A stretch of 22,968 bases of DNA from Candidatus Eiseniibacteriota bacterium. Its GTDB lineage: Bacteria > Eisenbacteria > RBG-16-71-46. Numbering within the stretch: position 1 is the first letter of the stretch; each line of letters starts with the position of its first letter. The DNA lies in the NCBI GenBank assembly GCA_041483195.1, contig JBGPFC010000049.1:1-22968 (forward strand), given 5' to 3'. Positions 1-20,810 of this stretch are shown here, one piece after another. A program made the position numbers and the translations under genes. The notes beneath the pieces were generated by a model. It searched no databases. It was not told where the DNA came from and saw nothing but the letters and a program-made list of their open reading frames with translations.

Positions 1-47
1 GACTCTTAATCAGTAGGTTCTTGGTTCGATTCCAAGGCGGCGCACCA
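1..47 (+). tRNA. tRNA-Lys(CTT), 5' part cut off by window edge
   Basis: Anticodon loop CTCTTAA (3-9; anticodon CTT at 5-7) closed by GA/TC pairs, variable loop AGGTT, T-arm CTTGG-TTCGATT-CCAAG, acceptor 3' strand GCGGCGC, discriminator A and encoded CCA (45-47). Confidence 0.9.
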
Positions 48-207
48 TTTCCCCCGAGCGGTTGTAACTCAAGTGTGAGTCATCACGCAGGCTGCGGGGG
101 GGGAGCGACTACGGTCCGGCAGCTTGCCCACCCGGCTGGCGGAACCCTTCGAAGCGAGGGGCGCCGGGCTGACGGCGTTCCTCCACGTCCTCTACGCGGC
201 GTCCTGA

Positions 208-678
208 TCAGGAGAGACGGAGGACGACCTCTTCGATCTCCTGACCGCGCGCGTTCGCGAAGCCGATCTCCTCGCCGGTGACCTCGAAGCCGCACTTCGC
301 GAGGACGCGGAGCGAGCCGACGTTGTCCTTCGCGGCGCGTGCGTGGAGCGGGCGGTCCGTGACGACCGCGAGAAACGCGCGGAGCGCCTCCGTCGCGAGG
401 CCGCGGCCCCAAAGGCGGCGGGCGATCCCGTAGGTAACCTCGCGGTCTCCGCCCATGACGAAGCTCGCGATGTTCCCGGCGACCTGCCCCTCGAAGACGA
501 TCGTCTGGTTCTTGTTCTCCGGGTTGGCGCGGATCTTCTTCCAGTGAGCGTCGAACGCCGCGCGGTCGTCCGGATCCTTGTGGGTGAACGCGGCCATGTG
601 GTTGTAGGTGAGGTCGCGCTGGAGGTCGAAGAAGATCGGCAGGTCCGCGTCCGTCACGTCACGCAGGGTGATGACCAT
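208..678 (-). CDS. GNAT family N-acetyltransferase (RimJ/RimL-like), 156 aa
   Basis: MVITLRDVTDADLPIFF start, acetyl-CoA motif A 'YGIARRLWGRGLATEAL', motif B 'DNVGSLRVLAKCGF'. ATG at 678 chosen over GTG at 711 because a -10 box lies 6 nt upstream of it. Confidence 0.9.
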   Translation of the reverse strand: MVITLRDVTDADLPIFFDLQRDLTYNHMAAFTHKDPDDRAAFDAHWKKIRANPENKNQTIVFEGQVAGNIASFVMGGDREVTYGIARRLWGRGLATEALRAFLAVVTDRPLHARAAKDNVGSLRVLAKCGFEVTGEEIGFANARGQEIEEVVLRLS

Positions 679-684
679 GCGCCG

Positions 685-690
685 ACTATA
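685..690 (-). promoter_or_regulatory. Putative sigma70 -10 box (TATAGT) for a leaderless GNAT transcript
   Basis: Minus strand reads TATAGT-cggcgc-ATG; no Shine-Dalgarno sequence. Confidence 0.55.
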
Positions 691-700
691 CGACGAGATC

Positions 701-736
701 GGACTGGGCACGGCACCGAAGCGCCGTGCCCGGTCC
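701..736 (-). terminator. GC-rich stem-loop with C(UUCG)G tetraloop (terminator/stabiliser-like, no U-tract)
   Basis: Perfect 9-bp arms GGGCACGGC (706-714) / GCCGTGCCC (723-731), extended by GGAC/GTCC; minus-strand loop gcTTCGgt. Confidence 0.45.
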
Positions 737-950
737 TCCGCGAGGGATCAGGGCGTAACGCGACGAGCTCGATGTCGCGCTGGATCGTGAAGTGGCAACC
801 CTTCTCGACGAACTCATCGGCCCCGACCCCGATGGGGACGAGCGTCGGCGTCGACCCCGCGATGTCCCAGATGCGCGAGGATGCGCCGAGCGCAGTCGTG
901 CTGAGTACGGAATGGAAGTCGGGATTGGCGTCGCCACTGCGTAGCGCCCC

Positions 951-984
951 TAGGTTGAGGGTTCGATTCCTTCGCGGCGCACCA
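951..984 (+). repeat. Variant copy of the tRNA 3' end (att-like) with a compensated T-stem
   Basis: TAGGTT-GAGGG-TTCGATT-CCTTC-GCGGCGCACCA versus host TAGGTT-CTTGG-TTCGATT-CCAAG-GCGGCGCACCA. Confidence 0.8.
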
Positions 985-1046
985 ACTTACCTTCGGGCCT
1001 ACAGCAAGTCGAAGTACGTGAAGTGCTGAGCCAGCGCGCTCAGCGG

Positions 1047-1582
1047 TCACTTCGGCGGTCGATCGGTCCCTGCTTTCCGATTGGTTTGCCGAAGTGCCAC
1101 GGCTCCGACGAATAACAGCGCGAGGATCAGGATCATCGCCGCGCGTGCGTCCGACATCGGTGCGGGTGTCGGGGGGACGACGGAGTCCGCGGTTTCGATC
1201 GCGATCTGTCCAACCACGTACTCCTCACCCCCCAGGGCGCTCACCCGAATCCGGAGCTGATTGGATCCGAAGTGGGAGGCGAGTTGGCCCCTGCCGTGTA
1301 CGGGATGCTGCCCGGCACCTCGGGCTGGAGGACCAGCGACCCGGACACCGGCGTTCCGGGCGGTAATCCGCTGAGGCCCACCGTGCGCCAGGTGGTGTCA
1401 CGCGTCGGAGGCACTTCCTCGATCCGATAGTGGCCGACGAATGGCGCGGCGCCTCGATGGACCAGCCCGAACGTCATCGACTGTACGGTGGGCGCACGAT
1501 CTTGGCCCACATCCCCCCGCAGTTCGGCGAAACCGGGCGCCGGCACTAATTTGGCCACTGCGCCAAACGTCTGCACGCACAC
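1047..1582 (-). pseudogene. Probable frameshifted exported protein with C-terminal membrane anchor (IPTL-CTERM-like)
   Basis: ORFs 1241-1582 and 1047-1244 overlap. The second frame is open further upstream (GQLASHFGSNQLRIRVSALGG), which fits a frameshift near the G-run at ~1288-1291. It ends in PPTPAPMSD, a hydrophobic helix, then a basic tail. Confidence 0.4.
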
Positions 1583-1670
1583 CGAACTCCCTCCACTTCA
1601 TCGTCTCGATGAAGGCGATGCCAGGACAGGCGTTATCCCACGACCAAACGAGCACCGGCTCGGCCGAAAG

Positions 1671-1686
1671 CGGCTTGTTTCTTGCA
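1671..1686 (+). promoter_or_regulatory. Possible sigma54 -24/-12 promoter
   Basis: CGGC-ttgtttc-TTGCA gives exact GG-N10-GC spacing, ~33 nt upstream of the ATG at 1719. Confidence 0.35.
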
Positions 1687-1718
1687 TGGGCAGCGCCCTC
1701 GACCATCGGGGGAATGCC

Positions 1719-2789
1719 ATGAAAACGCTCGTCGCCCTACTCATGGGCCTCTATTGCGCCTTCATCGCCCGCGACATCGCCGGCAGGCTGTTTGGAAGCA
1801 TCGACGGTCAAATGTCCTTGCCAATGGCCGTCAACGTCATTGTGTTCCTTGTCAGCGCGCCAGCGGGAACATGGCTGGTGCTGCGCAAGGCGCCATCGTG
1901 GCGACGATTGATTTTCAATGGGTGTGCACTCGGGGCCGTTGAATGGTTATCGGCGATCGTAGCCGGAGGGATTTATCAGCACCGAGTCCGGTCCGCACTC
2001 CTGGCCTCGGGAGTCAGCCAGCAGGAACGAATTAGCTCGGTTTCCAACGGCTTGGATGGCGCGACGTCGTTTTTCTGCCTCGTTGTGTGCCTCGTCGGAT
2101 TGCTGCAGACGAGAAACTCGAGCGATGTGCGCGAGCGCGATGCGCGGCGCTCGCGAGAAGCGGCCGCCCCCGGAACTGCAAGCACCACGCTCATCGTTGC
2201 CTCCGAAGCTATCCTGGCTGTGCTCCTCATCGTGGGTTTCATCGCGATCAGACGCATCGACCTCGGCCTCGCCGCCATCTTGCCTGCACTCGTATTGGCT
2301 GCGATGGCGTGCGCGCTTGTGGTTCTTGCAATCGCGGGCATGGGGCAGGGTCTGCGCCTCCTCAAGACTCAAACTCACCGTGTCCTCGGACTCATCACGG
2401 TTGCGGTGTCGGCCGCTCCCGTTCTCTGCGCGGCGGTTCTGATGGCGACGGGGTTATACGACCTGAGACAACTGGACGCTCATGTTGCTGACCGCCGCAA
2501 ACAGTACCGGCAATTGGAACCGTTCTTTCGAACTCCGCAGGTGCTCAAGGACTCCTACGCAACAGCACCGTACGAGATTGTTTTTGTTTTCGCCGATGAC
2601 CGGCAAGTACGCATGTCAGCCGCGGGTGCCCACGCACTGTCAGATTTCTGCGACACGTCGCTCGTTGGCAAGGCACTGGACGTAAGGTTGCCCAGTGAAG
2701 GCCAGTTCCTGGCGAATCCCAACGCAAATGTGCTTTACGAGGGCACAAATCTTCAGAAGTACTGGAGAGAACACCATACGGGCGGATGA
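1719..2789 (+). CDS. Hypothetical multi-pass membrane protein (~7 TM) with soluble C-terminal domain, 356 aa
   Basis: ATG after GGGGGAA, about seven hydrophobic stretches then a ~110-aa hydrophilic tail. Codon usage is visibly more AT-rich than the backbone. No family recognised. Confidence 0.7.
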   Translation: MKTLVALLMGLYCAFIARDIAGRLFGSIDGQMSLPMAVNVIVFLVSAPAGTWLVLRKAPSWRRLIFNGCALGAVEWLSAIVAGGIYQHRVRSALLASGVSQQERISSVSNGLDGATSFFCLVVCLVGLLQTRNSSDVRERDARRSREAAAPGTASTTLIVASEAILAVLLIVGFIAIRRIDLGLAAILPALVLAAMACALVVLAIAGMGQGLRLLKTQTHRVLGLITVAVSAAPVLCAAVLMATGLYDLRQLDAHVADRRKQYRQLEPFFRTPQVLKDSYATAPYEIVFVFADDRQVRMSAAGAHALSDFCDTSLVGKALDVRLPSEGQFLANPNANVLYEGTNLQKYWREHHTGG

Positions 2790-3140
2790 GGCGTCACGTC
2801 GCGTACGCCTCCGCGGAGCGCTTCGGTGACGCACTTCCTCGGCAGCGTTTGCACCACCTGCCGGTGCGCCACCCGAGCCGGTAGCCGCTCGTCGAGCCAC
2901 AGGCTCCACTCGGCGAGTCGCCGCGCATGACATGACGGGCAGAAGTGCCGTCCCTGGCAGCGCAACGCCACCAAGAACTCGGCCCGGCATGTACTGCAAC
3001 GCACCCGGACGTAGCCGTGCTCGAGCAGACCGTAGTCGAGGAAGCGGCCGACCGCCGCGCGCGCCGCGCGCCGCAGCGGCCCGTGCGTGGGCTCGAAGCG
3101 CTCCTCGTGCAACCCGCTCGAGGGTCTCGATCCCATCGCT
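2790..3140 (-). pseudogene. IS91-family (Y2/rolling-circle) transposase remnant, zinc-binding domain only
   Basis: RFLDYGLLEHGYVRVRCSTCRAEFLVALRCQGRHFCPSCHARR...VAHRQVV matches the IS91 Zn-binding pattern (CG..GF.R..CxxC..VAFSCK.R.FCPSC..RR). The first Cys is replaced by Tyr and the catalytic domain is absent. Confidence 0.8.
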
Positions 3141-3215
3141 GGAGAGATCGCGGCTCACCGTCAGGGCGAGTCAACCAAGTCGACGGCAGCGCCCAGCATG
3201 TTGCTCCGCGCGGAA

Positions 3216-3399
3216 ACGGGACTAGTGGTCCCGTTTCGCGTTCCTTCCAGTGCCCACGGGTTCCCTCGGATGCCCACGCGTTCTCTGTGCAACTTCTGGC
3301 CAGTCTTCGCAATACGTTGCCCGACAATCGCTTCGTGCCTGCGGCGGTTAGAGTCTCTTAATCAGTAGGTTCTTGGTTCGATTCCAAGGCGGCGCACCA
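3216..3399 (+). repeat. att-like end, copy A: ~140-bp arm plus 45-bp perfect copy of the tRNA 3' end
   Basis: 3355-3399 is identical to 3-47. 3216-3399 aligns without gaps to 5439-5622 (offset 2223; about 150/184 identical by hand count). Confidence 0.92.
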
Positions 3400-3850
3400 A
3401 CTTGCGGCGGGTGAACGGGGAATCTGGTCCCGTTTCACCCTCCGAGTGGTCGCGCGGCACCGCGCGAGTCGCTGAGCTCCCGCCCAACCAAGCTCTCGCC
3501 GATCGTGCCTCAGAATGCGTCACCGCGATCGAGCCATGCCCGACCACCGCCCGCAGCGTGGCCTGCGGGCCGCCAGCCCCCCCTGGATTCCGAGCGGCCA
3601 TTTCATGATCCACGATCCCGATTGGCCATAGTTCTCCGAACGCTGGCCGCACGCGCTGGTCCCGCGGCCACCTACACCGCCCCGCCAGCGGCTCCGAAGC
3701 TCAGATGGAATGGAGCAGCGGTTCCCTACGCCGCCTTTCGCGCCTGACCGTCGCCACTTCGTGTTTCTCGACGAATCTGGGCGCAGAGCGCCGAATCTGA
3801 TCTGACTTCGACAACCAGTCCACGAATGCGCAGGCCGGCGAGGTCACCAT

Positions 3851-5167
3851 CTGAGAGACGCCCGCAGTCACCGCATCGCCCAGCCGTCGCTCCGCCGTCG
3901 GCTCCTCCGTTTTATTCGCTCCCTCGGTCTTGCCTGCCTGACCGGCGGCGCGGTGGCAGGGCCGGCGGCGGCCCAGTGGACGCGCGTCGACGAGGTGCCG
4001 ATCGCCAACATCTACAGCGTTTGGACAACGGGAGACACGATCGCGGCCAGCTCCGACAGCACCGTGTTCGTGAGCTTCGATCGCGGTATGACCTGGATCA
4101 CGAGCGCGAAGGTGGCCGCCGGCGTGATGTCGATCGAGGCGGTGAGGGTTCACAACTGCCGCTTGTACGCCGGCACGCGTGGCCAGGGCGTGTTCGTGAG
4201 CAGCGATCGGGGCGCGACCTGGCAGAGCTTCAGCCAGGGCCTCGTCGGCGGATTCGCCAACTCGCAGCTCGTCATCATGGACTTGCTGATTCGCGGAGAC
4301 GATCTCTACGCCGCGACTGGAGGCGCGGGGCCCTGGACCCGCAACCTCGCGAGTGCGGGCGGGTGGTCGCACTACGGAAACGCGCTCGAGCCCGCGCAAG
4401 CCTCGAACATGGAGTCGATCGCCGGATCACCGACGAGGTTGCTGGCCTGCGCCGGCTTCAATGGCGACGACTACCACCGGGACCTCGGAGATTCGGACTG
4501 GACGTTCGACTACCTCTTCGGCCATGTGGCCGCGGGGCTCGCGTCGCTCGCCGCGGTCTGGACGGGGAATTCCTGGCTCGTAGGGACCAATATCGGCGTG
4601 TTCCACAGCGCGCTCGGGCAATCGCCTTGGGCATATACCGACTTCGGGCTCCATCCGACCCTCTTTGCTTCCTTCGCTCTTCATGGCGGAGTCGTGTACA
4701 CGCACTTCGCCAGCGGAGAGGGCACCGGGATCGAATACAGCACCGACGACGGCACGAGCTGGAATGTGCTCGATGCGCTGCCCGCCACGTTCACCTACAA
4801 CATCGCGACCATCGGCGACACGCTCTACGCCGGACGAGTGGATGGGCTGTGGCGCCGGCCAATCGATCCCGCCCCCGTCTCCGTCCCCATCGCTGGTGCA
4901 CCGGGAAGTCTGCACTTCGCGATCACGGGGCCGAATCCTATCCACGACGAGGCGCGGCTCAGATTCGAGCTGCCCGAGCCGGGACGGGTGCGCATCGACG
5001 TCTTCGACATATCCGGCCGCCACCTGCCGGGAGGCGTCGACGAAACGTTCGCCGCGGGAGCACACGAGGTGCTCTGGCGGGCTCGGGACTTCGCGCCCGG
5101 GATCTACCTCGCTCGCCTCAGCGCCGGCGGCCGATCGGCGGTGGTGCGGCTCGTCCGGACGAGGTGA
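3851..5167 (+). CDS. Secreted beta-propeller-like (BNR/Asp-box) protein with C-terminal FlgD-Ig/T9SS-type sorting domain; start uncertain (CTG 3851 or GTG 3953)
   Basis: Asp-box motifs SFDRGMTW, SSDRGATW, STDDGTSW; C-terminus GPNP...VFDISGR...APGIYLARL. The frame is open upstream of 3953 and encodes a signal peptide ending AAA-QW. Confidence 0.8.
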   Translation: MRDARSHRIAQPSLRRRLLRFIRSLGLACLTGGAVAGPAAAQWTRVDEVPIANIYSVWTTGDTIAASSDSTVFVSFDRGMTWITSAKVAAGVMSIEAVRVHNCRLYAGTRGQGVFVSSDRGATWQSFSQGLVGGFANSQLVIMDLLIRGDDLYAATGGAGPWTRNLASAGGWSHYGNALEPAQASNMESIAGSPTRLLACAGFNGDDYHRDLGDSDWTFDYLFGHVAAGLASLAAVWTGNSWLVGTNIGVFHSALGQSPWAYTDFGLHPTLFASFALHGGVVYTHFASGEGTGIEYSTDDGTSWNVLDALPATFTYNIATIGDTLYAGRVDGLWRRPIDPAPVSVPIAGAPGSLHFAITGPNPIHDEARLRFELPEPGRVRIDVFDISGRHLPGGVDETFAAGAHEVLWRARDFAPGIYLARLSAGGRSAVVRLVRTR

Positions 5168-5272
5168 GCGGCAGCTCAGCGGAATGGAGCAGCGGTCTTC
5201 TAACTCGGCCCTGCGAGATTTCGCAGAAACCAGAAGCTCGCGCGCAAGTCACTGGAACGCACGCCGAAGCCC

Positions 5273-5353
5273 GGCACCTACCTGGCCCAATGGGGCTCGT
5301 TCGGCAGCGGGAACGGGCAATTCCAGTACCCCGCGGGCGTCGCGACGGACGGC
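5273..5353 (+). pseudogene. Isolated single NHL-repeat fragment
   Basis: Translates GTYLAQWGSFGSGNGQFQYPAGVATDG, a typical NHL repeat. No ATG/GTG start after the in-frame TAA at 5201, and similarity stops after one repeat. Confidence 0.65.
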
Positions 5354-5438
5354 GTCATAGGAGTGGCAGTCGGGATTGGCGTCGCCACTGTGTCGCGCGG
5401 CCTCGCGAGCGACCCGGCCGCATCGGCATCCACCACAT

Positions 5439-5622
5439 ACGGGACAAGTGGTCCCGTTTCGCGTTCCTTCGGGTACCCACGGGTGCCCGCTGATGCCCGC
5501 GCGTTCTTTGCGCAAGTTCTTGCCAACTCCCGTAGTGCACTGCGCGACGATCGCTTCGTGCTGACGGCGGTTATCGTCTCTCGTTCAGCAAGTTCTTGGT
5601 TCGATTCCAAGGCGGCGCACCA
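5439..5622 (+). repeat. att-like end, copy B: arm plus partly degenerate tRNA 3' end; right boundary of islet
   Basis: 5592-5624 is identical to 17-49, while the anticodon-loop part carries 5 mismatches. The arm is homologous to 3216-3354. Confidence 0.9.
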
Positions 5623-5627
5623 TTCTT

Positions 5628-6830
5628 TCAGACCCCCCGGCTCCAGATCGCGAGTAGCCCGGCGAGTCCCGTCGCGGCCGCCCACAGCGCGGCGCGAGCG
5701 GGCCACGGCACGGGCTGCGCCGGCGCGGGACGCTGATCCGGCACGCCGAACGACTCGCGGGCCTGCCGCGCCGCGACGCCGAATGCGACCAGCCACGCGA
5801 GGCCGAGCGCGAGCAGCTCCGCGGTCCGGCTGGTCCGCGCGAGCGTCCGCGCCACCGCGAGCCACAACATGGCGCCCGGCGTGCCCGGCACCCCCGCGAG
5901 CGACGCCATCGCGTAGAGACCGAGCGCCCCGCTCAGCGGATGCCGGCGAAACAGCACCGCGGGCGGCGTGGAGCGGCCGGTCCCGACCGGGACGAAGCGC
6001 GCGACCGTCGACGCCCCCGCAAGGGCGAGCACCAGATGCGCGGCCCATCCGGCGGCGAAATCCGGAAACCCGATCAGGCGCAGGCCGCCGCCGCGCGAGG
6101 CGACCAGCGCCGCGAGCAACAGCGCTCCATTCAGGCTCGCGAGCGTCCCGACGCGGCGCTCGAGTCGGCGCTGCCGCAGCAGCGTGGCCGCGCCCACTAC
6201 GAACGCGGTCGCCGATGCGATCCCGAGCATCGAGCCCGTGAGGCGCGCGCCATCGGGAAACGCCGCGATCCCGGCGAGACGCTGGGTCATCCAGCCCGCG
6301 CCGCTCACCTGAAGCGCCGCCACCGCGAGCGGCGCGAGCCACGCCCGTCCGCCCTGGAACAGGTCGGCAGCCCAGAAATGGAATGGCGCACCGCCGAGCA
6401 GCACCAGCCCGACCAGCAACGACAGCGCGAGCGCCCCGCTCCACAGCAGCGGGGTGCCGAACCCGAGGCGCAGCACGCCCCATTGTTCGGCCACTGTCGA
6501 GGTCCCGGTCGCGATCACGAGCAGCTCGGCGCCCGCCCACGAGAGCGCGAGCGAGCCGCCCAGCACCCAGAGCAATTTCAGCGCGCACTCGGACTGAAAC
6601 GCGTCGTCCCCTGCGCGCGCCAGCATCGCCGCCACCATCGCGGCGGCGAGCGGCGCCCACGCGGGGCTCGCCTGAATGCCGAGCGCGACCATCGCGGCGA
6701 GCGGAGCGAGCACCGCGAGCGGGGCCATGCCGAACGACGCGCCGCGCGAACGGCGCTCGAGCAGCAGCAGGAGCGCGGCCACCAACAGGGAGGCGGCGGC
6801 GGCGAGCGGAACCCAGGCCGATGCGATCAT
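5628..6830 (-). CDS. NuoN/MrpD-like antiporter-type membrane subunit (divergent), 400 aa
   Basis: Motifs ECALKLLW, GGAPFHFWAADLFQG and ASLAGVPGTPG correspond to NuoN EAxxKY, PFHxWxPDVYQG and SLAGIP. ATG at 6830 overlaps the upstream stop (ATGA). Confidence 0.8.
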   Translation of the reverse strand: MIASAWVPLAAAASLLVAALLLLLERRSRGASFGMAPLAVLAPLAAMVALGIQASPAWAPLAAAMVAAMLARAGDDAFQSECALKLLWVLGGSLALSWAGAELLVIATGTSTVAEQWGVLRLGFGTPLLWSGALALSLLVGLVLLGGAPFHFWAADLFQGGRAWLAPLAVAALQVSGAGWMTQRLAGIAAFPDGARLTGSMLGIASATAFVVGAATLLRQRRLERRVGTLASLNGALLLAALVASRGGGLRLIGFPDFAAGWAAHLVLALAGASTVARFVPVGTGRSTPPAVLFRRHPLSGALGLYAMASLAGVPGTPGAMLWLAVARTLARTSRTAELLALGLAWLVAFGVAARQARESFGVPDQRPAPAQPVPWPARAALWAAATGLAGLLAIWSRGV

Positions 6831-10237: not shown

Positions 10238-11906
10238 CCTCGATTATTCATGAAGAGCAGTGAACACGAAGACCTCCGTGTGGTAGGAAGGCGTTGTTCA
10301 GGCACCTTTCTTCCACGGACGGAGGTCTTCGCGTGCGCGACCTTACCACGACACCGTGTCTGCTGTTCCCGGGGCTTTTCGCCCGGCCCCTGACGGCGAC
10401 GTTCGACGTCCCGAACGCCAGCTCCGACGGTGGCGCCGTGCTGCTCAAGGCCGCCGATCGGCGGCTCGGCCTGATCCAGCGGCTGGCGGCCGCGCGGGTG
10501 GATGAGCGCCAGCGCGGCAAGGTCCGTCACGGTCTGGCGGAGCTGCTGGGCCAGCGCATCTACGGCCTGGCGCTCGGCTACGAGGACGCCAACGACGACG
10601 CCCGGCTGGCCGAAGATCCCATGCACAAGTTGCTGCTCGGTCGCGATCCGGTGACGGGGGACGCGCTGGCCTCGCAGCCGACGCTGTCGCGGTTCGAGAA
10701 CGACGTCACCCGCGGCGAGCTGCTGGCGATGAGCGAAACGCTGTTCGAGACCGTGCTGGCGCGGCACGCACGTCGCCGCCGCAAGGTGCGCCGCATCACC
10801 GTCGATCTCGACGTCACCGACGATCCCACCCACGGCGCGCAGCAACTCGCGTTCTTCAACCGCTTCTACGACCGCTGGTGCTATCTGCCGCTGCTGGCGT
10901 TCCTGACCTTCGACCGCGAGCACGAGCAGTACCTGTGCGCCGCGGCGCTGCGGCCCGGCAATGCACCGACCCAGCACGGCGCGCTCACGCTGCTCAAGCG
11001 CATCCTCGGCCGGCTGCAGGAGCGCTTCCCGAACGCCCGTATCCTGGTGCGCCTCGATGGCGGCTTCGCCGCGCCCGAGCTGTTCGAGTTCCTCGACTTC
11101 GTCGGCGTCGACTACGTGGTCGCGATCGCGAAGAACCCGGTGCTGGAGCGTGAGGCCGAGCTCGACCTGATCATTGCCCGCCTCTTGAGTGAGCACTCCG
11201 GCCAGACCGAGCACGTCTACACCGACTTCACCTACGCCGCCGGGACCTGGGATCGCGAGCGCCGGGTCGTGTGCAAGGCCGAAGTGGTCCGACTCGACGG
11301 TCGCGAGCCGCGTCCGAACGCCCGCTTCGTGGTCACCAACCTCACGGGCAAGGCGCAGCGGATCTACGAGCGCATCTACTGCCTGCGGGGCGAGGTCGAG
11401 AACCGCATCAAAGAGCTGTTCGACGTCGCGCTCGATCGCACCAGCTGCGCGAAGTTCCGCGCCAATCAGCTGCGCGTGCTGCTCGCCGCCGCGGCCTACG
11501 TGCTGCTGCAGGAGCTGCGCCTCGCTGCCCGCGGCACCGCCTGGGCGCGCGCTCAGGTCTCGACCCTGCGACTCGAGCTGCTCAAGATCGGCGTGCAAGT
11601 CATCGCTTCGACGCGGCGGCTGGTGCTGCGCTTGCCCACCGCGTTCCCGTACCGCGACGGCTGGCGCGCGCTCGCGCTGCGCAGCGGCGCCACGTTCGGC
11701 TGAGTTCGCCGCCCTCGCCCGCCACGCGTCGCCCCTCGGAGCGCAGCGCTGCCCAAAACGCACCCTTGAAGTCATCTCAGCCCCCGCCGTGGCCCGGCGC
11801 GAACCCGCTGTCCCTGCCGGACCCCTCGCCGTATCCTCCCGCGGTGACAAGGTCCCGCGTTTCTGCGATCACGCCGTCCGGACCGAGCGTTCATGAATAG
11901 GTCGGG
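10238..11906 (+). mobile_element. Complete IS1380-family insertion sequence, 1669 bp
   Basis: Imperfect terminal IRs CCTCGATTATTCATGAA (10238-10254) and TTCATGAATAGGTCGGG (11890-11906), flanked by a 4-bp target duplication CTAA (10234-10237, 11907-11910); single transposase. Confidence 0.93.
10333..11703 (+). CDS. IS1380-family DDE transposase, 456 aa
   Basis: SSDGGAVLL, LASQPTLSRFEN, VDLDVTDDPTHGAQQ, VRLDGGF, YCLRGEVENRIKE, ANQLRVLL; GTG start after GGAGG (10321-10325). Confidence 0.95.
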   Translation: MRDLTTTPCLLFPGLFARPLTATFDVPNASSDGGAVLLKAADRRLGLIQRLAAARVDERQRGKVRHGLAELLGQRIYGLALGYEDANDDARLAEDPMHKLLLGRDPVTGDALASQPTLSRFENDVTRGELLAMSETLFETVLARHARRRRKVRRITVDLDVTDDPTHGAQQLAFFNRFYDRWCYLPLLAFLTFDREHEQYLCAAALRPGNAPTQHGALTLLKRILGRLQERFPNARILVRLDGGFAAPELFEFLDFVGVDYVVAIAKNPVLEREAELDLIIARLLSEHSGQTEHVYTDFTYAAGTWDRERRVVCKAEVVRLDGREPRPNARFVVTNLTGKAQRIYERIYCLRGEVENRIKELFDVALDRTSCAKFRANQLRVLLAAAAYVLLQELRLAARGTAWARAQVSTLRLELLKIGVQVIASTRRLVLRLPTAFPYRDGWRALALRSGATFG

Positions 11907-19313: not shown

Positions 19314-20810
19314 CTAGGCGGCGATGTCGAGGTACGGCAGCAGCAGGGGAAGCACGCGGCGTCCGAGCGGCGGGAACTCCATGACGAAGTAGACCGTCTC
19401 GCGCAGAGCATCCCAGCTCAAGTCCTGGCGATCCAGCTGGCGGGCGAGATCGAGCAGGGCGGCCCGGGCGCGCGCTCGATGACCGTCCGGCACACCCAGG
19501 CGATCCACCTCGGTCGCGAGTGCCGCGATGGCGAGCGCGACGCCCGAGCGCATGCCCGCCGTGGTGGGAGCGGGAGCGGGCTCAGGGCCCGGCGCGCGCC
19601 GCACCGGGCGCGGCAGCGACGTGAGCACCGGAGAGGTGCGGAGGAACTCCTCGGTCGCGCGCTCCGCGGCTTCCGAGTCTTCCGGCGCGTCGGCGTCCAA
19701 TGCTACGGCTTCGACTCCGGGCTCGACTTCATCCCGTGCCGAAGCCTCGGGAGGCACCGGGAGCGGGATGGGATCCGGCTCCACGTGCGTCGATTCCTGC
19801 GCGGGTTCGTCGGGCAACGAGGGGTCCCGATCGATCGTCGTGGGAGGAACCTGGAATTCTGGCAGCGTCACATCGTGGACCACTTGCGAAGGACGCCAGC
19901 GGCGGGCACGCGGTCCGGGTCGCTCGAGCGCCGGCGTACTCTCGGGAGCGGGCGCCTGGACGCGTGCGGCAGGGGGTTCGGACTCCGCGGTCGGAGCCAT
20001 CGCTTCGACCGAAGGGACCGGCGCCTCGGGAACGACGGGTGCGGCGACGGGACGCGGCGGCTCCGCGGCGACAGGACGCGGCGGTTCCGCGGCGACCGGG
20101 CGCGGCGGTTCCGCGACGACCGGGCGCGGCGGTTCCGCGGCGACGGGACGTGGTGGTTCCGCTGCCGCCGGAGCGTCGATGAACCCGAGCATGTCCTTGA
20201 GGCGCCCCCTGGCCCCGTTCTTCTTCGAGGATTTCCCATGGCGGTGCGTCACGCGTCCGGCATCGGGCGCGGGCTTCGCGGGTGCGGTCGGCGCCGTCAG
20301 CGTCGGGCTCGAGGCCTCGATCCGCGGCGGAGCGTCCTGTCCTGGCTCGTTCGAAGCGATTTCACGCGCGGCCTCGCGCGGCGCGGCGTCCCCGGCCGCC
20401 GGATCGCTCGAAACCGTGGGAGGAAGCTCGACGGTTGGGAAATCGTCCTCGGACGCGCCCGGGTCCTGTTCGGCGGAACGCGCGTCGGCCCGGGCTTCGG
20501 GCACGCCGGACTGGGCGATCTCATCGAGCAGGGCGCGCAGCATCGACATGGCTTCCCCGCAGCCGCGCTCGTAATACTCCCTCGTTTCCTTTTCGGTGGG
20601 CCTTCCCATCGGCGCCGAAAAAGGAACGCGGCGGAAGCGCTCGGACCGCGCGCTATCGCCCGGCCAGATCCGCTGGATGACGGTGAGTGTCGCCTGCCGC
20701 CACTGCTTGAAGTTGCTCGAGCGCACGCCGGCGTTGAAGAGTCCGCCGAGCTCTTCGAGCTGCTGCTCGAGCCGCTTGCTCGCGTTGCGGGCGACCGCGG
20801 GATCTTTCAC
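19314..20810 (-). CDS. Hypothetical protein: helical N- and C-terminal domains joined by a long Pro/Ala/Glu-rich linker, 498 aa
   Basis: GTG start after GAGGAG; globular-looking first ~100 and last ~75 aa; fills the gap between the oxidoreductase and clpB. Confidence 0.75.
   Translation of the reverse strand: MKDPAVARNASKRLEQQLEELGGLFNAGVRSSNFKQWRQATLTVIQRIWPGDSARSERFRRVPFSAPMGRPTEKETREYYERGCGEAMSMLRALLDEIAQSGVPEARADARSAEQDPGASEDDFPTVELPPTVSSDPAAGDAAPREAAREIASNEPGQDAPPRIEASSPTLTAPTAPAKPAPDAGRVTHRHGKSSKKNGARGRLKDMLGFIDAPAAAEPPRPVAAEPPRPVVAEPPRPVAAEPPRPVAAEPPRPVAAPVVPEAPVPSVEAMAPTAESEPPAARVQAPAPESTPALERPGPRARRWRPSQVVHDVTLPEFQVPPTTIDRDPSLPDEPAQESTHVEPDPIPLPVPPEASARDEVEPGVEAVALDADAPEDSEAAERATEEFLRTSPVLTSLPRPVRRAPGPEPAPAPTTAGMRSGVALAIAALATEVDRLGVPDGHRARARAALLDLARQLDRQDLSWDALRETVYFVMEFPPLGRRVLPLLLPYLDIAA
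20041..20160. repeat. Coding tandem repeat, 5 x 24 bp (encodes EPPRPV[A/V]A on the minus strand)
   Basis: Unit GCGGCGACGGGACGCGGCGGYTCC with mostly synonymous variation. Confidence 0.92.

Follow-up and report, generated by a model that had tools for sequence, protein, structure and literature searches.

Cis-mobilizable elements (CIMEs), and their accretion in tandem at attachment (att) sites, are known from relatives of ICESt1 and ICESt3 in Streptococcus thermophilus, and IMEs (integrative and mobilizable elements) and ICEs (integrative and conjugative elements) form tandems at the tRNA-Lys gene of S. agalactiae, as set out in the part of PMC5704250 devoted to such elements. Here we describe a 22,968-bp stretch of DNA, referred to as the window, which is the entire contig C49 of a Candidatus Eisenbacteria metagenome-assembled genome (MAG; 4.17 Mb, 93 contigs, 70% GC) from an uncultured soil or sediment bacterium. 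We denote this genome G000, use further G numbers for its relatives, and L numbers for individual genome or metagenome loci. The first 5.6 kb of the window are best read as a tandem array of CIME-like eroded integrative elements at tRNA-Lys(CTT), which a rare helper integrase probably still mobilises. As with the CIMEs covered there (PMC5704250), integration and transfer genes have been lost, attL and attR are kept, and the units lie in tandem at the 3′ end of the target gene; such arrays arise through successive site-specific integration, and composite movement with a functional element is possible. Since eroded elements that keep their att sites are what the CIME definition given in that part of the paper describes, the array is of a known kind (PMC5704250). 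Unlike the CIMEs discussed there, the modules are mostly single-gene units of 0.3–5 kb, stacked up to four deep and found across a candidate phylum; they share one conserved arm of ~140 nt and reach 89–95% identity between genera, and their mobilisation is putative.

The locus also resembles the islands that the Islander database, in the passages dealing with sublocation, assigns to class 'A', with an anticodon-centred attP (PMC4383910): the block of identity begins in the anticodon loop and closes with the tRNA 3′ end, the element restores the gene, and a displaced fragment marks the far end. According to the same passages, Islander accepts tandems only with an integrase for each member, and holds 125 tandems of at least two and 4 of at least three islands in 2168 genomes (PMC4383910). 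Unlike those tandems, arrays such as the present one would be filtered out, and island finders that apply this rule of one integrase per island miss them. Much strain-variable accessory content beside tRNA-Lys in these uncultured bacteria would therefore go unrecognised as mobile, including secreted propellers with a type IX secretion system (T9SS) tail, kinases, esterases, GNAT and DinB proteins, and metal-resistance genes.

In design the array recalls integrons, whose attC clusters without an integrase are known as CALIN (clusters of attC sites lacking integron-integrases). In both, small units that mostly hold one gene and have a recombination site apiece are stacked in an array without an integrase, and both carry cargo such as GNAT, DinB, glyoxalase, SnoaL, DUF1801 and Cass2/GyrI. 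Unlike integrons, which use folded attC sites, attI and IntI, the present array has a sequence-conserved duplex attP arm joined to a tRNA fragment, a tRNA platform and a linked lambda-type integrase. Tandem cassettes, some without a recombinase of their own, are also known from the staphylococcal cassette chromosome (SCC) and pseudo-SCC elements at rlmH (orfX) of staphylococci, and from the pdif modules of Acinetobacter plasmids. They share with the present array the arrangement of cassettes between target-end copies or short recombinase sites, with cassettes that lack a recombinase relying on one supplied in trans, as the present modules may do. Recombinase class and target differ: SCC elements use Ccr serine recombinases and pdif modules use XerCD, both at targets unlike tRNA-Lys, and the G000 genome has no match to the serine recombinase profile PF00239.

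Tandem tRNA-Lys 3′ ends at the array

ARAGORN detected no whole tRNA in the window. A full tRNA-Lys(CTT) gene lies at the end of contig C6 (139803–139878), the final 48 nt of which are identical to window positions 1–48, so the window begins within a functional tRNA-Lys(CTT) gene. This is the sole CTT isoacceptor among the 63 tRNAs of G000. Positions 1–47 (+) correspond to tRNA positions 30–76 and form the attL of the array; an Rfam scan of positions 1–6000 returned only a tRNA, 5′-truncated, at 27.2 bits.

A repeat search of the window yielded a 45-nt direct-repeat family. With 3–47 as reference, the copies at 3355–3399, 5578–5622 and 940–984 are 100%, 89% and 67% identical, the tRNA-like part of the last being 951–984/988. 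An earlier note on this DNA had described four tRNA 3′ copies in the same orientation as the bounds of modules about 0.9, 2.4 and 2.2 kb long; the search confirms them. Its positions for three copies stand (3–47, 951–984 and 3355–3399), whereas the fourth, given as 5592–5622, spans 5578–5622 and measures 45 nt instead of 31. The note had also placed the start of the 45-nt repeat at the first base of the anticodon loop, which agrees with the C6 gene: position 32 of the tRNA, which opens the loop CTCTTAA, is where the repeat begins, and in arm-type ends the identity between element and tRNA runs from that position to the 3′ end, as in anticodon-loop islands.

The copy at 3355–3399 (+) is perfect from anticodon loop to CCA. 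The copy at 951–984 (+), identified from repeat and profile matches, is truncated, runs from the variable arm to CCA, and comes from a lineage with another T-arm. The outermost copy at 5578–5622 (+) is diverged in its anticodon-loop part; under an integration model, it would be the displaced original tRNA end and the outer attR. Its placement is backed by synteny of the DNA beyond 5622 with the chromosome of a relative, G035, and by a step in GC content at ~5600 from 0.57–0.70 to 0.72–0.79 (0.57–0.63 over 1600–2800, within module B). Because of this step, a 184-nt repeat that includes upstream sequence and the recurrence of that sequence in relatives and metagenomes, the tRNA copies are not a product of chance.

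The copies delimit module A (48–984, +; 0.94 kb, from the repeat analysis), module B (985–3399, +; 2.4 kb) and module C (3400–5622, +; 2.2 kb), the bounds of B and C being the tRNA copies and agreeing with matches to L113 and G035, respectively. Direct repeats of the target gene thus flank the modules as attL and attR, as in CIMEs. Those of B and C retain the anticodon-loop core, and the right-hand copy of A is truncated. This end of A no longer has an arm, and its tRNA copy is short of the anticodon-loop part: 909–939/947 matches 5360–5390/5398, just upstream of the arm of module C, at 90%, and the tRNA copy resumes at TAGGTT (951), with the T-arm GAGGG/CCTTC as against CTTGG/CCAAG in the host gene. 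Having lost its right-hand core, module A is therefore fused to B as one unit, and would now move solely together with it.

Module order rests on a MAG contig, and collapsed or misjoined repeats could in principle have created the array during assembly or binning. The contig starts inside a repeat. Among 24 public sequencing runs available as k-mer contigs (Logan), we examined four (X1, X2, X7 and X9); their contigs all stop inside the repeats, 25–30 nt into each tRNA copy, none crosses a junction with 31 nt or more on each side, and they thus give the module order no independent confirmation. Loose contig ends follow positions 47, 989 and 3403 and may come from other organisms; a joint of 1341 to 2817 in a k-mer contig was set aside, one side being only 21 nt. 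Against an artefact, G022, a closed genome of 3.6 Mb, and G035, on a contig of 1.7 Mb, have arrays of the same design, the chromosome past 5622 is syntenic as described, and 45-nt repeats are short compared with the k of 127 and 141 that appear in the contig names of some related MAGs. We regard this explanation as extremely improbable.

A conserved arm and its recurrence

Two of the tRNA copies are preceded by ~140 nt of common sequence, detected as the 184-nt repeat (3216–3399 versus 5439–5622, 82%). Arm B (3214–3354, +), which reads as an attP P-arm, and arm C (5437–5577, +) are built from the same four parts. The first is a hairpin or palindrome, AAACGGGAC-N5-GTCCCGTTT (3214–3236 and 5437–5459). 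It is followed by three phased TGCCC-type repeats spaced ~10 nt apart (3250–3275 and 5473–5498), by a second, weaker hairpin, and by a 25-nt near-invariant block, GACAATCGCTTCGTGCTGGCGGCGG (from 3323 and from 5546), after which GTTAGAGT leads into the tRNA part. An alignment of 50 arms from the window, relatives and metagenomes showed a mean column identity of 73% with 30 invariant columns. The arm hairpin was paired in 90.6% of cells, and two of its pairs changed on both sides in 16 of the 50 sequences, although these 16 may go back to a single event or to only a few. Just past the tRNA part, the left ends of modules carry the GTCCCGTTT motif as well (3413–3436 and L076); at 3413–3436 (+), on the P′-arm side, it forms an imperfect hairpin of the same repeat family, with a weak match to the arm profile over 3411–3520 (E 0.14). 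A core with repeated phased motifs on both sides is what we take to be the layout of a complex lambda-type attP, and the arm together with the core reads as a putative arm of this type. Within G000 the arm is confined to C49, and viral contigs gave 0 matches to it.

The earlier note had proposed a sequence search for the arm in relatives and a comparison of the cargo found between the same ends, and both gave positive results. Among 61 genomes (G000 and 60 relatives), 14 yielded matches reaching into the arm, one of which (G038) is unpublished, and 10 of the 13 arm matches come from relatives labelled Candidatus Eisenbacteria/Eiseniibacteriota. A metagenome scan added 61 arm loci, several with two to four arms 1.0–5.9 kb apart, and the closed genome G022 carries two arm-type modules. 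At least two copies of the tRNA part lie on one contig in 13 of the 61 genomes. Intervals between successive copies measure at most 5.2 kb in 18 of 22 cases, the four long ones being 12.1, 14.7, 19.0 and 19.6 kb. Six-frame searches of 16 genomes found a match to the tyrosine integrase profile PF00589 in just one of these 22 intervals (in G036), and none of the 201 open reading frames (ORFs) from 59 of the 61 metagenome arm loci matched it at E ≤ 1e-5. Our ORF scans were filtered by length and third-position GC (GC3), so that small or low-GC genes may escape them; the six-frame PF00589 searches are free of that weakness. Elsewhere, the arm accompanies many other small cargos: carboxylesterase, FG-GAP and other T9SS-tailed proteins, Ser/Thr kinase, DUF4143 ATPase, DinB, MerT/CsoR, SnoaL, glyoxalase, Cass2/GyrI, SRPBCC and DUF1801.

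Some of these cargo types are like those of integron cassettes, and G000 does encode an integron integrase on contig C4 (TIGR02249, 452.6 bits). If the array were a true integron, IntI would move the modules and the arm would be attC or attI. By eye, the direct repeats of the arm and its GTTAGAG box recall attI, and in one metagenome locus (L056) the arm has an IntI N-terminal fragment, pointing away from it, as its immediate neighbour. Against this reading, a search of 16 intI loci (G000 and 15 relatives) for arm-like sequence gave no match at E ≤ 10, and an IntI fragment is present at this single arm locus among all loci examined. Five genomes with arms (G022, G014, G029, G001 and G034) have no IntI match beyond Xer-level similarity, and in G000 itself intI on C4 is away from both C6 and C49. 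Furthermore, tRNA identity begins 2 nt past the GTTAGAG box, not at G|TT, and the arms are conserved in sequence with only short local hairpins, unlike attC sites, which conserve structure and vary in sequence. On the strength of the intI-locus search and the single L056 case, the arm was rejected as attI or attC of the G000 integron, and we consider an integron origin of the array very improbable. The term 'integron-like', used in the earlier note, holds as an analogy of design and fails as a statement of kind: the array has no intI beside it, its arm is conserved in sequence, and the 16 intI loci are without an arm.

The integron loci offer observations of their own. In L056, the IntI fragment (1443–1922, −) and the arm (1908–2099) form an intI–attI-like layout that is unique among the loci examined. 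The G000 integron integrase is full-length (C4:134149–135408; L048:6150–7409), and its homologues, at 53–90% identity, are patchy among the relatives. At least five of them (G003, G024, G013, G052 and G023) sit no more than a few hundred bases from where their contig stops, a hint of repeated cassette arrays at these places.

Other ends on the same tRNA differ from those of the window. In G045 (C173; L014), the same stretch of ~50 nt with a GC-rich, terminator-like hairpin follows every tRNA copy, and two of the three ends have no arm. The ends in G014 are preceded by another common sequence. At least one further family of att arms therefore uses this tRNA. In G029 (C105; L020), a gene for a group II intron reverse transcriptase/maturase (5353–6318) lies directly past the last tRNA copy of the array.

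Integrase remnants and horizontal sharing of eroded modules

According to the earlier note, none of the modules encodes a recombinase. This is correct for intact genes (PF00589 and PF00239), but two remnants are present, one of the IS91 family at 2753–3136 and one of a tyrosine integrase at 3477–3577. In a six-frame profile search, neither C49 nor the end of C6 gave a PF00589 match. Like a CIME, then, the array has no integrase or transfer genes of its own, and the remnants are all that is left. The integrase remnant (3477–3577, −), identified by translated comparison, is a frameshifted 3′ end of the integrase termed IntE-Lys below. It reads toward the tRNA copy, lies 78–178 nt past it, and spans the LGH...Y region. 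Its two segments show 14 of 20 and 8 of 11 identities to residues 315–334 and 338–348, respectively, of an integrase in G034 (E 1e-5 against 401 nt and 5e-4 against 5.8 kb).

In G034 this integrase, IntE-Lys, is intact (374 aa), reads toward tRNA-Lys and ends 6 nt from its CCA, within a low-GC element that also encodes a Replic_Relax protein. A tyrosine integrase near the tRNA or beside the same arm, for which the earlier note had suggested looking, is thus absent from the C6 end and from C49 and present next to tRNA-Lys in G034. An integrase beside the att site, absent from the window, was seen only in the relatives G034 (C34), G033 (C495) and G036 (C272). The G036-type integrase by tRNA-Lys was rejected as the cognate enzyme: it belongs to a 19-kb island that has no arm at the far end, a different class of element. 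In the window, and also in L076, L093, L060 and G042, C-terminal remnants of IntE-Lys directly follow tRNA-Lys copies and read toward them. The IntE-Lys clade (at least 75% identity) is represented in 3 of the 61 genomes, once intact, once cut by a contig end and once as a remnant. In L076, just 280 nt separate the intact tRNA from the next tRNA copy, and they consist of an integrase 3′ remnant joined directly to that part of the arm which is nearest the core; because this short stretch links the two, the left-end integrase and the right-end arm belong to one element type. Since module C keeps an integrase remnant at the place where the intact relative carries the gene, we conclude that the modules are probably erosion products. 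Deletion from an integrase-bearing parent is supported in module C, through its remnant, and for the element type, through L076 and G034; in modules A and B no integrase remnant was found.

Some arms that end differently also occur with such remnants. In six metagenome contigs (L055, L059, L066, L075, L085 and L104), the tRNA part behind the arm ends after 11 nt (CTCTTAATCAG or CTCTTCATCAG). This arm lies ~0.9 kb downstream of a tRNA-Ser/Ser/Arg(ACG) cluster in L075 and ~0.3–0.4 kb after tRNA-Arg(ACG) in L059, and four of the six contigs (L059, L066, L075 and L085) carry a C-terminal remnant of the IntE family. The six contigs appear to represent either a fossil that became fixed in a single lineage or a relative targeting another tRNA.

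The second remnant in the window (2753–3136, −) is the N-terminal part, 127 aa, of an IS91/ISCR-family Y2 transposase (Zn_Tnp_IS91, E 3e-12; NCBIfam ISCR/IS91 below cut-off), with 74–78% amino-acid identity to full-length copies in G003, G024, G017 and G006. Arm B is 80 nt away from it, and L088 and L060 have fuller copies at the corresponding place, in the same orientation. One-ended, rolling-circle transposition of such an element could have produced the array through repeated copying of adjacent DNA together with the tRNA end. Yet the three arm-adjacent cases have one common ancestral junction, most arms have no such gene beside them, and full-length copies in G003, G024, G017, G006, G011 and G029 have neither arm nor tRNA nearby. 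Where such an element would have an intact Y2 HUH transposase and would end at the repeat boundaries, the window holds only the 127-aa stub. Given the single junction and the distance of the full copies from arms and tRNAs, the element was rejected as a mobiliser and regarded as a passenger, and this origin of the array is, in our judgement, highly improbable. The element itself is multi-copy in G003, G017, G024, G006, G011 and G029 (L114–L123; Zn_Tnp_IS91 plus Y2_Tnp, ~410–470 aa by open frame), and G017 contig C2 has five IS91-family matches within 20 kb, all on the minus strand.

Eroded modules have been shared horizontally. Module C (3355–5169) is 95.2% identical over 1818 nt, integrase remnant included, to a locus of another genus (G035, L023), and 5254–5453 matches the same genome at 95.5%, compared with 77% and 69% for the flanking chromosome on the two sides. 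In G035, module C directly adjoins the tRNA. Module B (951–2732) is 93.5% identical over 1786 nt to the metagenome locus L113, where an intact arm precedes the module, and arm B is 95% identical to that of L081, which has another T-arm and another flank after the arm. The GNAT gene of module A is 93% identical to L096 and 89% to G029 (L047), where it lies behind other neighbours, and 67.5% to the GNAT gene of the congener G001. All three modules thus have copies that are 89–95% identical in other genera or metagenomes, against 69–77% for the flanking chromosome. In G001, the tRNA and the GNAT gene are separated by a 4.9-kb kinase module that gave no integrase match. The T-arm of the displaced end there (CTTGG/CCAAG) equals that of the G000 tRNA, and the rebuilt G001 tRNA has GAAGG/CCTTC; a crossover 5′ of the T-arm, in the anticodon loop, predicts exactly this swap.

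These observations suggest the following course of events. The ancestral element would have carried IntE-Lys at its left end, reading toward the tRNA with its stop codon a few bases from CCA, and at its right end a complex attP arm (the hairpin with GTCCCGTTT, three helically phased TGCCC repeats and the 25-nt block) joined to a tRNA copy from anticodon loop to CCA. A crossover in the region of the anticodon loop would rebuild the tRNA from the element's copy, and the previous tRNA 3′ part would come to lie beyond the new element, on its far side. With the previous 3′ part displaced at each integration, repeated integrations would stack modules. Deletions would then have removed the integrase and any transfer genes and left one cargo gene and the att sequences, which is the CIME state. 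The eroded modules may still be excised, transferred and integrated, in trans or as composites with a rare IntE-Lys helper, for which the Replic_Relax-bearing element of G034 is a candidate. Because eroded modules recur at 89–95% identity in other array positions, genera and metagenomes, continued mobility without an integrase of their own fits the data, as does the association of the arm with many other small cargos, and mobilisation by a rare helper is the most likely reading. Of the two alternatives weighed in the earlier note, eroded islands and mini-elements mobilised in trans, the second was preferred; both apply, with erosion supported by the integrase remnant and mobility by the sharing.

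Several results weigh against continued mobilisation. The high-identity sharing comes in part from short metagenome contigs whose host is unassigned. No excision or circle junction was seen, the k-mer contigs from the public runs stopping inside the repeats. A cognate integrase was found neither in G000, where the best relatives are fragments of 45–49% identity on C5, C14 and C10, nor in the closed, array-bearing genome G022. A search for the far end of the G034 element found no second tRNA copy or arm in 20 kb or on its contig, and no element with integrase and arm was seen in one piece. A sensitive tblastn search gave noise-level matches to the integrase in modules A and B, and integrase remnants were found in module C only. 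Finally, loss of the module A arm and a CTG codon at the start of the module C propeller gene are signs of decay rather than maintenance.

The same signs, together with the integrase and transposase remnants and the missing cognate enzyme in G000 and G022, would suit modules that are dead relics. In that case, integrase-bearing islands decayed in place, and copies spread by homologous recombination, e.g. after transformation or transduction, without site-specific recombination; arms of 140–185 nt at 75–95% identity and the tRNA gene could have acted as short anchors. Such anchors, however, are short and often only 75–85% identical, and the T-arm swap at the displaced end of G001 is what an anticodon-loop crossover predicts. 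In addition, the arm keeps its 30 invariant columns across families while the adjacent integrase genes are almost wholly gone. On balance we find the relic explanation unlikely, and if it held, the array would be a case of ordinary, well-documented island erosion. If instead a helper integrase moves the modules, as we favour, ordinary tRNA-targeting integrases can through reduction give rise to a stacking of cassettes like that of integrons, and the locus would supply a defined, compact attP/attB pair from a phylum without genetic tools.

A bolder extension of helper-driven movement is possible, and we offer it tentatively. Here, tRNA-Lys(CTT) would be a fixed platform for phylum-wide gene capture, parallel to integrons in design and independent of them, each single-gene cassette having a selected attP of ~250 bp, perhaps composed of the arm, the tRNA 3′ part and the left-end motif. 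A rare IntE-Lys would shuffle these cassettes between genomes from a plasmid-like helper, and the integrase-less state would be their normal working form and not a sign of decay.

Cargo genes and other features of the window

The Pfam scan of the window covered 21 of its 60 listed ORFs. Module A carries a GNAT acetyltransferase gene (208–711, −; Acetyltransf_3, E 1.9e-16, full domain). In module B, a 356-aa protein (1719–2789, +; open frame) without a Pfam family is predicted, by eye, to be a membrane protein, and the ORFs at 1047–1582 (−) likewise have no Pfam family. Module C encodes a secreted BNR/sortilin beta-propeller with a Por_Secre_tail, the T9SS C-terminal sorting domain (3851/3953–5167, +; open frame and Pfam). 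Its gene has CTG where the 95%-identical G035 homologue starts with GTG. One intact cargo gene per module, as the earlier note had it, is therefore accurate for the full GNAT domain and for the open frames at 1719–2789 and of the propeller, with the reservation that the latter has a CTG start. An exact 16-nt repeat (~29 nt imperfect) at 3707–3722 and 5181–5196 brackets the propeller gene; the motif matches one further site in the genome, on C2, which we take as chance.

Beyond the array, tandem 24-nt repeats at 20041–20171 (four overlapping 59-nt copies, 83–92%) sit in a 498-aa ORF (19314–20810, −) without a Pfam family. The chromosomal part of the window also holds what appears to be an intact DDE transposase gene (10294–11703; DDE_Tnp_1_4, E 8e-125), with a gene for a small FlgD_ig protein on one side and a GGDEF gene on the other.

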